A stretch of 64,000 bases of DNA from Eledone cirrhosa (Eukaryota): NCBI GenBank assembly GCA_964016885.1, contig OZ024757.1, positions 4,340,001-4,404,000 on the forward strand, given 5' to 3'. Below are positions 8,451 through 9,040 of the stretch, one piece after another (position 1 is the stretch's first letter; each line of letters opens with the position of its first letter). The translations under genes and the position numbers were made by a program. The notes below the pieces were generated by a model. That model worked only from the letters and a program-made list of their open reading frames with translations. It was not told where the DNA came from and made no database searches.

Positions 8451-9040
8451 GTAGATAAATCTACCAAGAATTTACGGTAGTGTCCAATCCGTATGAAGAA
8501 CTCAATGTAGTCCGGATATCATGGAAAGAAGAGATGCAATGAAAAATCACTTTCGGTGAAAGATAAACGGAATACAGAGTCAAGATAAAATATTAAAAAA
8601 ATAATGAATAAAACAATGAAACAGTTCCTTATATTAAACAAAAAAAGTTCATTATTTAACGATCGTTTCTAGGATATATATGTGTTAGAATTGGCATGCA
8701 TATTCAACAGATCTATGTACAAAATTATACAAAATTATACAAACTATCAAGATTAAATATACATACCAAACACACATATATGCCGTCTTCAGAAATAAAA
8801 TTATTTCTGATTATTTCTGAAGACGGCATATATGTGTGTTTGGTATGTATATTTAATCTTGATAGTTTGTATAATTTTGTATAATTTTGTACATAGATCT
8901 GTTGAATATGCATGCCAATTCTAACACATATATATCCTAGAAACGATCGTTAAATAATGAACTTTTTTGTTTAATATAAGGAACTGTTTCATTGTTTTAT
9001 TCATTATTTTTTTAATATTTTATTTTTTAAATATTTTATA
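8451..9040. mobile_element. Fold-back pLTR element: about 213-bp near-perfect inverted arms, each with a long-stem-II hammerhead
   Basis: Arms are at about 8585-8798 and 8811-9025, and the mirror ORFs 8696+/8725- confirm the palindrome. Flanked by (TA)n. Confidence 0.85.
8811..8957 (+). ncRNA. Type I hammerhead ribozyme with about 115-nt stem II (mirror copy 8652-8798, -)
   Basis: ttattt-CTGAAGA(8817-23)-long hairpin-GAAA(8940-43)-cgatcg-TT-aaataa. Confidence 0.75.

Follow-up and report, generated by a model that had tools for sequence, protein, structure and literature searches.

A Type I Hammerhead Motif with a Long Stem II in the Terminal Repeat of a Hydra-Clade Penelope-like Element

Introduction

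Why should a hammerhead motif hold the two halves of its core more than 100 nt apart, and what is the intervening sequence for? In the window (the whole 64,000-nt stretch of Eledone cirrhosa DNA analysed here), the half-core CTGAAGA at 8817–8823 and the second half-core GAAA-CGATCG-TT at 8940–8951 can be read directly from the sequence. They stand where the initial annotation had placed them, and the spacer, which it put at about 116 nt, measures exactly that, including 10 nt from a tandem duplication in the tip. A strict type I descriptor gave three matches in the window and none in 100 shuffled windows. Folding of the region 8800–8970, which had been proposed as a check, gave −50.8 kcal/mol with a z of −7.1, and none of 200 shuffles was as good. 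The insert by itself folds at −42.4 on the sense strand versus −20.8 on the antisense strand. The features are collected in Table 1.

Table 1. Features of the hammerhead locus, in coordinates of the window.
Feature	Position	Strand	Remarks
(TA)n target microsatellite, left	8397..8450	.	From the sequence; copies end in (TA)n
Left arm: terminal repeat containing the mirror hammerhead; it begins 6 nt before C3 and reaches the tail end (+222, counted from G12)	8448..8798	-	98.9% identical to a full-length copy, 351 nt
10-nt reiteration of the first bases of the element at the head-to-head joint	8800..8809	+	From the sequence; similar reiterations elsewhere
Right arm: terminal repeat, beginning at the A 7 nt before C3 (putative RNA 5′ end) and ending at +85	8810..9023	+	
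Stem I, 5′ strand	8810..8816	+	Pairs with 8952–8958; 9–10 bp in full-length copies
Catalytic half-core C3-U4-G5-A6-A7-G8-A9	8817..8823	+	U3-A8 variant in 923 copies; N7 varies
Stem II base: C.A mismatch, G.U, G-C, C.C mismatch	8824..8827	+	Partners 8939–8936
Outer helix, 5′ strand	8828..8840	+	Pairs with 8923–8935; rewritten by compensatory changes in subfamilies G and H
Inner 17-bp helix, 5′ strand	8840..8856	+	Pairs with 8902–8918; G.U/A-U toggles
Apical module GAUA(D)UUUGUA (8861–8871) and UACAUAGAUC (8890–8899)	8861..8899	+	3 bp, 4x3 internal loop, 4 bp
G12-A13-A14-A15.1, palindromic stem III ACGAUCGU (8943–8950) and GUU triplet	8940..8951	+	Predicted cleavage 3′ of 8951
Downstream copy of the 5′ strand of stem I, UUCAUUAUUU	9000..9009	+	Can pair with the stem I 3′ strand; possible decoy
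(TA)n target microsatellite, right	9037..9135	.	From the sequence

The Host Element

Judged from its sequence, the motif is almost certainly a type I hammerhead that sits in the terminal repeat of a Penelope-like element (PLE), a young member of the Hydra clade. It had been called a PLE hammerhead before, and the call is borne out by ORF motifs and (TA)n insertion, both of which are Hydra-clade features. An ORF of ~830 aa, intact in many copies, lies between divergent hammerhead pairs and carries the motifs of a reverse transcriptase (RT) and of a GIY-YIG domain at the C terminus (YRDD, IVY...YIG). RWR is found at 54 (RWK in a second family, A), DKT at 132, a CxCx5C linker (CNCRNKANC) at 690, CxxC (CRLC) at 788 and CxH (CNH) at 816. 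As is typical of the Hydra clade, whose defining features are described in section 11 of Craig et al. (2021, PMC8557442), CxxC and CxH flank the catalytic E and N, and inspection of the ORF by eye revealed no CCHH. Pfam returned no match on this ORF, and the RT/GIY-YIG assignment rests on the motifs.

The start codon follows G12 by 372 nt. Copies are tandem or inverted, have terminal repeats with an optional tail and end in (TA)n. Tandem arrays have a period of ~6.7 kb, and a unit of this size departs from the "<3 kb" description of Hydra elements, which is descriptive and not defining. The 3′ UTR measures ~0.7 kb in the older subfamilies (L261, L205); in the subfamily that is young and active (L071:3109–6846) it has grown to ~3.7 kb, made up of TA/TG repeats. 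In a tree of 35 of the 36 proteins (one short row was dropped), built from unnamed homologues, the young family and family A are sisters with support of 81/86, a grouping with which a single origin of the long stems would be compatible.

Copies, Subfamilies and the Catalytic Core

Exact half-core patterns occur in the genome in 6,307 copies with GUU, in 4,505 older copies with GUA or GUC, and in 923 copies with a U3-A8 core; the reversed-pattern control gave 0 in each case. By these exact-motif counts, there are at least 11,700 copies in four subfamilies (young, middle, G and H). Among the scored genome matches, 43 of 44 are 100% identical, and many lie in divergent pairs. The core agrees with the type I consensus, the H17 position being U or A among 109 distinct inserts. 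In subfamily H, C3 and G8 have changed jointly to U3 and A8, a covariant already reported in PLE hammerheads (Cervera and De la Pena 2014, PMC4209133), while stem I is rewritten and its pairing retained. At the level of sequence, this paired core swap with a rewritten stem I gives good indirect evidence that the catalytic fold matters. Stem I had been described as TTATTT (8811–8816) with AAATAA (8952–8957). This pairing is present, but the window copy already starts at 8810 and the stem reaches 9–10 bp in full-length elements.

Across the loci of this genome, the length of the stem II insert varies continuously between 12 and 126 nt, with 95–126 nt in the long-stem subfamilies and 20–23 nt in three other Hydra families. 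The idea of a hairpin grafted onto the ribozyme is doubtful in view of this continuum. Other long inserts were also seen. Hydra family A (L076:1121; L080, minus strand, 5261) has a C3-C4 core, CCGAAGA, and an unrelated stem II of 81–83 nt; the fold of a divergent copy is similar. Downstream of a Hydra fragment (L067:996, L109), a U3-A8 core is combined with a 75-nt stem II, and in an unassigned motif a branched stem II of 95 nt is accompanied by the same palindromic stem III (L019, minus strand, 3104).

Stem II Is Kept Paired as RNA

Comparison of the copies supports selection of the long stem II as an RNA structure. The outer helix ATATATG/CATATAT has as its counterparts GGGTAGT/ACTACCC in subfamily G and TGGTGAT/ATCATCA in subfamily H, which are compensatory pairs. 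When pairs 5–11 of the outer helix were counted from the core without the use of a structure, 725 of 763 cells were paired among the 109 distinct inserts. A slide of 1 nt lowered the pairing to 6–9%, while 68–79% was found after a slide of 2 nt because of the AU repeats. The outer helix had been drawn as atatatgtgt/acacatatat; the rod exists, but covariation favours a register 2 nt away, in which 8828 pairs with 8935.

In an alignment of 31 copies, 96% of the cells are paired and both sides have changed in six of 25 pairs. The covariation score of this alignment is 0.183 versus 0.114 for shuffled alignments, none of 500 of which reaches it, and slides give at most 0.065. Measures that count pairs or pair types were not beyond the shuffles for the same 31 copies (37/500 and 39/500, respectively). 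RNAalifold on a MAFFT alignment misplaced the divergent subfamily and returned a core-sequestering helix instead of the rod; therefore, pairs were counted on anchored columns. Runs from organisms B and C yielded only short pieces of no use for covariation.

Recurrent changes in the rod were scored on 175 copies, most of them from the young family: 14 of 15 transitions preserve the pair, while all seven transversions break a modelled pair, chiefly at the edges of helices. At one pair every step is represented, from A-U through G.U (40 copies) to G-C (22 copies). At the base of stem II the mismatches themselves are conserved among the 109 distinct inserts (C.A in 99, C.C in 105), and pair 2 between them is G.U in 52, A-U in 33 and G-C in 19. 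Stem I gives a similar series at pair 5, with U-A, U.G and C-G among copies. Stems I and II covary, and stem III is invariant, 2 bp long and palindromic, as in a three-helix type I hammerhead with an open stem I. The double changes in stem II stem from about three lineage splits and not from many independent events, and representatives of G and H fold less impressively (z of −2.4 and −1.8).

It had been noted that the three non-Watson–Crick positions of the 17-bp inner helix are all G.U, which is correct (3/3), and selection on RNA had been deduced from this. The selection is supported by the double-sided changes. The G.U argument is weak alone because reverse-transcribed A-to-I edits would also yield G.U. 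We have dropped the G.U bias as sole proof; the double-sided changes are the real evidence. Conservation of the half-cores and of the pairing in other copies, on which the initial annotation had staked its case, is found across subfamilies.

The Palindrome and the Ends of the Copies

The DNA palindrome of ~440 bp reported around the hammerhead runs from 8585 to 9023. Its arms match at 213 of 214 nt, and a mirror hammerhead lies on the minus strand at 8798–8652. This palindrome is the usual insertion form of the element, since 1,037 head-to-head palindromes are joined ~7 nt before the core. The copy ends were read from the first 30 matches of the GUU-pattern search. Thirteen of them begin 4–8 nt before C3 (eight at the A of TCA-TT), 17 run on for at least 40 nt and none starts between. 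At the 3′ side, 18 end at +85, 10 at +222, and two read through. Head-to-head pairs, in a comparison set that includes 10 loci chosen for being palindromes, usually combine one end of each kind, and so does the window.

Another 30 fold-backs are located no more than 30 nt upstream of the stem I 3′ strand, and only 3–4 of these begin at the cleavage site. Since the pattern used for them reaches no further than the young family, the ratio of 1,037:30 is approximate. Since 1,037 joints lie at −7 and 30 near the cleavage site, the templates must be almost always uncleaved. We infer the following course. The RNA of the element would start at the A 7 nt before C3, in an initiator-like TCA-TT. The protein would nick both strands of a (TA)n site and prime cDNA at two internal sites, +85 and +222. 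Each cDNA would extend across the uncleaved ribozyme as far as the 5′ end of the RNA, the two would be joined head to head, and such joining would give the palindrome of the window with its one tailed arm.

Head-to-head joints often carry 1–3 reiterations of the first 10–13 nt of the element (G000 C8:29529893, C3:31134973, L161), as if the RT had copied its template's 5′ end again in a telomerase-like slip. Several copies from two subfamilies (L215–L218, L227, L277) share a foreign 5′ junction, ending in ...AAAGTAGAAACA, joined at the −7 start. This junction may stem from a template switch that recurs, or it may mark a non-autonomous family that is derived.

Folding, Activity and Detection of the Ribozyme

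The predicted minimum free energy (MFE) structure pairs UUUCUG with YAGAAA in three subfamilies, and the active monomer lies 4.5–10 kcal higher. For short-stem hammerhead controls the active fold is 3–10 kcal above the MFE, and the core-sequestering helix is the MFE in only one of three subfamily H copies tested. Locking is therefore not a special function of the rod, because the gaps of short-stem hammerheads are similar and H is mostly without this helix; the notion that the rod locks the ribozyme is weakened accordingly. The palindrome ACGAUCGU is predicted to form an intermolecular duplex of −10.0 kcal/mol, which in the model would be about enough to offset the gap in a dimer of short transcripts. 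Pairing of the downstream stem I repeat with the 3′ strand is kept as U-A/U.G/C-G across subfamilies. Competing folds, together with the 2-bp palindromic stem III, may restrain cleavage.

The closing pair of stem II is C.A in 99 of the 109 inserts in place of G10.1-C11.1. We regard this as a variant and not as an exclusion, because mismatches at 10.1/11.1 are common in Hydra hammerheads (PMC8557442, File S2) and U.U is tolerated at the closing pair (PMC3088659). The terminal loop of stem II is ~40 bp away from the core.

It had been suspected that standard models would miss the motif. Rfam indeed gives 0 matches in the window at gathering score, and at E-value level no hammerhead match either here or on five loci, short-stem families among them. 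The short-stem Hydra hammerheads are missed too, so the failure is not peculiar to the long stem. The core search of PMC8557442 allowed spacers of 7–17 nt, and half-cores at 35–50 nt were remarked on there. Descriptors with short stem II spacers miss whole families, which here means more than 11,000 copies as well as the unrelated 75–95-nt inserts.

The Apical Motif and the Role of the Rod

Near its tip the rod carries a motif, GAUA(D)UUUGUA...UACAUAGAUC, which is identical at 20 of 21 nt between the young subfamily and G, while the flanks of these two are only 51–61% identical (49–61% for the flanks as a whole). It has 15,172 matches in the genome (control 0). In all 99 distinct motif-bearing inserts, the 5′ arm from core to motif measures 32–41 nt, and the variable tip beyond it, where the window copy has its duplication, 3–28 nt. 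Subfamily H was first found via this motif, so that its conservation in H is partly circular; most of the 100 listed copies found by the U3-A8 core also show it.

A loop that stays fixed, carried by a rod whose length is constant but whose sequence is free, has the profile one would expect of a protein-binding site. We think it rather probable that the rod is a scaffold presenting a candidate binding loop for the RT-endonuclease of the element itself, on a slow ribozyme that depends on a dimer or a protein. With the ribozyme and the two copy ends all located upstream of the ORF, the putative binding site would have to fall within the terminal repeat. For stem II, a role in protein binding or as an ADAR site, as previously suggested, is plausible in the light of the apical motif and of the A>G pattern described below. 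Several findings weigh against the scaffold. The seven recurrent transversions all break modelled pairs, the folds of G and H are weaker, and binding and cleavage are both predictions. The apical motif is not evident in the 81-nt insert of family A. Other Hydra families of this genome work with 20–23-nt inserts, so that Hydra mobility as such does not require the rod.

The rod might also have no job at all, stem II having lengthened by slippage and staying paired only so that the core assembles. The insert continuum, the tip enlarged by 10-nt duplications and the swelling of the 3′ UTR of the same lineage with simple repeats would all fit such tolerated growth. It leaves unexplained why an apical motif stays invariant in sequence amid rewritten helices and why the spacing from core to motif is so narrow, and we regard it as unlikely.

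An A>G Pattern and the Question of Editing

In run X4, seen as contigs, A>G occurs at the positions equivalent to 8918, 8932, 8939 (N11.1) and 8943 (the catalytic A15.1) of the window, in 34, 19, 18 and 21% of depth, with 16–29 contigs per site aligned to a full-length copy; depth in contigs measures such frequencies poorly. In X1, a larger run of the same organism, the value at these four sites is at most 0.02%, and among 175 genomic copies G is present at them in 0, 0, 1 and 0, respectively. Two further A>G sites are genomic variants that are present in X1 too. No X4-specific A>G of at least 5% was found among 45 downstream (tail) As, and no T>C of at least 5% among 125 Ts. The pattern suggests ADAR action on the sense strand. 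It is a lead and not a result, because no record identifies X4 as RNA, and because it derives from a different sample than X1 and consists of contigs only. The rod would then be a substrate of host ADAR as a by-product.

Two bolder readings may be built on this lead. According to the first, stem II is a molecular ruler that holds the candidate loop about three helical turns from the core, the element's enzyme gates cleavage, and ADAR edits A15.1 and its neighbours. This is quite doubtful; if true, the ruler and the editing would place a ribozyme under both element and host-editing control. According to the second, the rod extends over the core through UUUCUG with YAGAAA, and deamination of A11.1 and A15.1 by ADAR decides whether the RNA stays full-length. 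A change at A15.1 would stop hammerhead cleavage. Both the four X4 sites, at 18–34% of depth, and the predicted sequestering of the core in three subfamilies speak for such a switch. The points raised above about the X4 sample and its contig depth tell against it, as does the one-in-three result for H, and transcripts across palindromes would be edited without any switch. We consider it improbable.

Very improbable is a DNA element, in which the apical sequence would act as a downstream promoter or endonuclease site and the −7 boundary would result from 3′-end processing at AATAAA. AATAAA does occur ~10 nt before this boundary in the young, middle and G subfamilies, and PLE terminal repeats carry internal promoters (PMC3846280, PMC6765202). 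The H copies shown lack AATAAA there and yet have the same boundary, the motif halves pair around a tip of variable length, which suits RNA, and the sense strand is the more stable one in 82 of 99 inserts. A pre-miRNA or Dicer substrate yielding a defined small RNA, for which the hairpin has a suitable size, is barely credible: a miRNA precursor would conserve an arm, whereas stem II has no conserved arm of 21–23 nt, its helices turn over (57–58% identity between young and H), and the Rfam miRNA matches fall on the palindrome centre or on TA repeats, far under the gathering scores.

Relation to Known Systems

The long-stem-II form is a real, new structural variant of a known element and a known ribozyme. 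In the literature searched, we found neither a PLE hammerhead with a long stem II nor an ADAR-edited natural hammerhead. The insertion of the discontinuous mammalian Clec2 hammerhead sits in loop I. Like the present one, it is a natural hammerhead with its halves far apart; several hundred nt are inserted in a host 3′ UTR in that case (PMC6765202), while here a covarying stem II lies in a mobile element.

The closest relatives are the Hydra-clade PLEs described by Craig et al., which share the protein motifs, (TA)n targeting and a type I hammerhead in the terminal repeat, and whose hammerheads share the mismatch at 10.1/11.1 and U or A at the cleavage site (PMC8557442). The stems II given in that account have 3–7 bp with loops of 3–10 nt, and the elements are mostly <3 kb; here the inserts are 95–126 nt with a conserved apical motif, in an element of ~6.7 kb. 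The metazoan PLE hammerheads of minimal type are alike in being type I, in the palindromic helix III suggesting dimers, in the U3-A8 covariant and in inverted pairs 100–700 bp apart; low activity in vitro was reported for them (PMC4209133). What is called a "large" helix II in that report has 6–8 bp versus ~40 bp with internal loops here.

For the PAc Poseidon element, as probably for ours, two internal RT starts define the tail and both strands are extended (Frangieh et al. 2024, PMC11167929). An uncleaved template and a protein-assisted hammerhead were described for it in vitro, to which the copy ends suggest a parallel here. In that PLE, hammerhead cleavage was dispensable and required protein; there the ribozyme and the start codon overlap, and the RNA bound by the protein is found within the first 172 nt of the ORF (PMC11167929). 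Unlike this arrangement, the ribozyme and both copy ends of the present element are upstream of the ORF. The inverted, head-to-head pLTRs described by Arkhipova et al. (2013, PMC3846280), in which a tail is optional, resemble the palindromic junction with one tailed arm. Self-priming on an antisense template is favoured there, while the sharp start and the two 3′ ends found here would fit double priming on sense RNA.

The lineage bears on the role of hammerheads in Penelope-like elements and offers a specific candidate cis-element. It also amounts to a natural mutagenesis series, with four subfamilies, rewritten helices, a swapped core pair, an invariant loop and a putative RNA start and priming sites that are sharp to the base.

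Other Features of the Window

The intact ORF of another Penelope-like element (839 aa; Pfam RVT_1 and a weak GIY-YIG) occupies 1712–4231 on the plus strand. Further type I hammerhead motifs, with stem II inserts of 14–48 nt, were found at 14706, 21994, 28193, 28825/28940 (an inverted pair), 35654–36711 and 46416. Decayed fragments of other Hydra-type ORFs, 36–54% identical to the families studied, lie at 37243–38053 (+), 13909–14100 (−) and 40563–40700 (+). A broken LTR retrotransposon with zinc knuckle, protease, RT and integrase spans 42442–45615 (−), and RT fragments are present at 53992–55334 and 61237–61959 (−). The palindrome is adjoined at 9133–10950 by another repeat with a period of ~568 nt, in three direct copies and one inverted copy.
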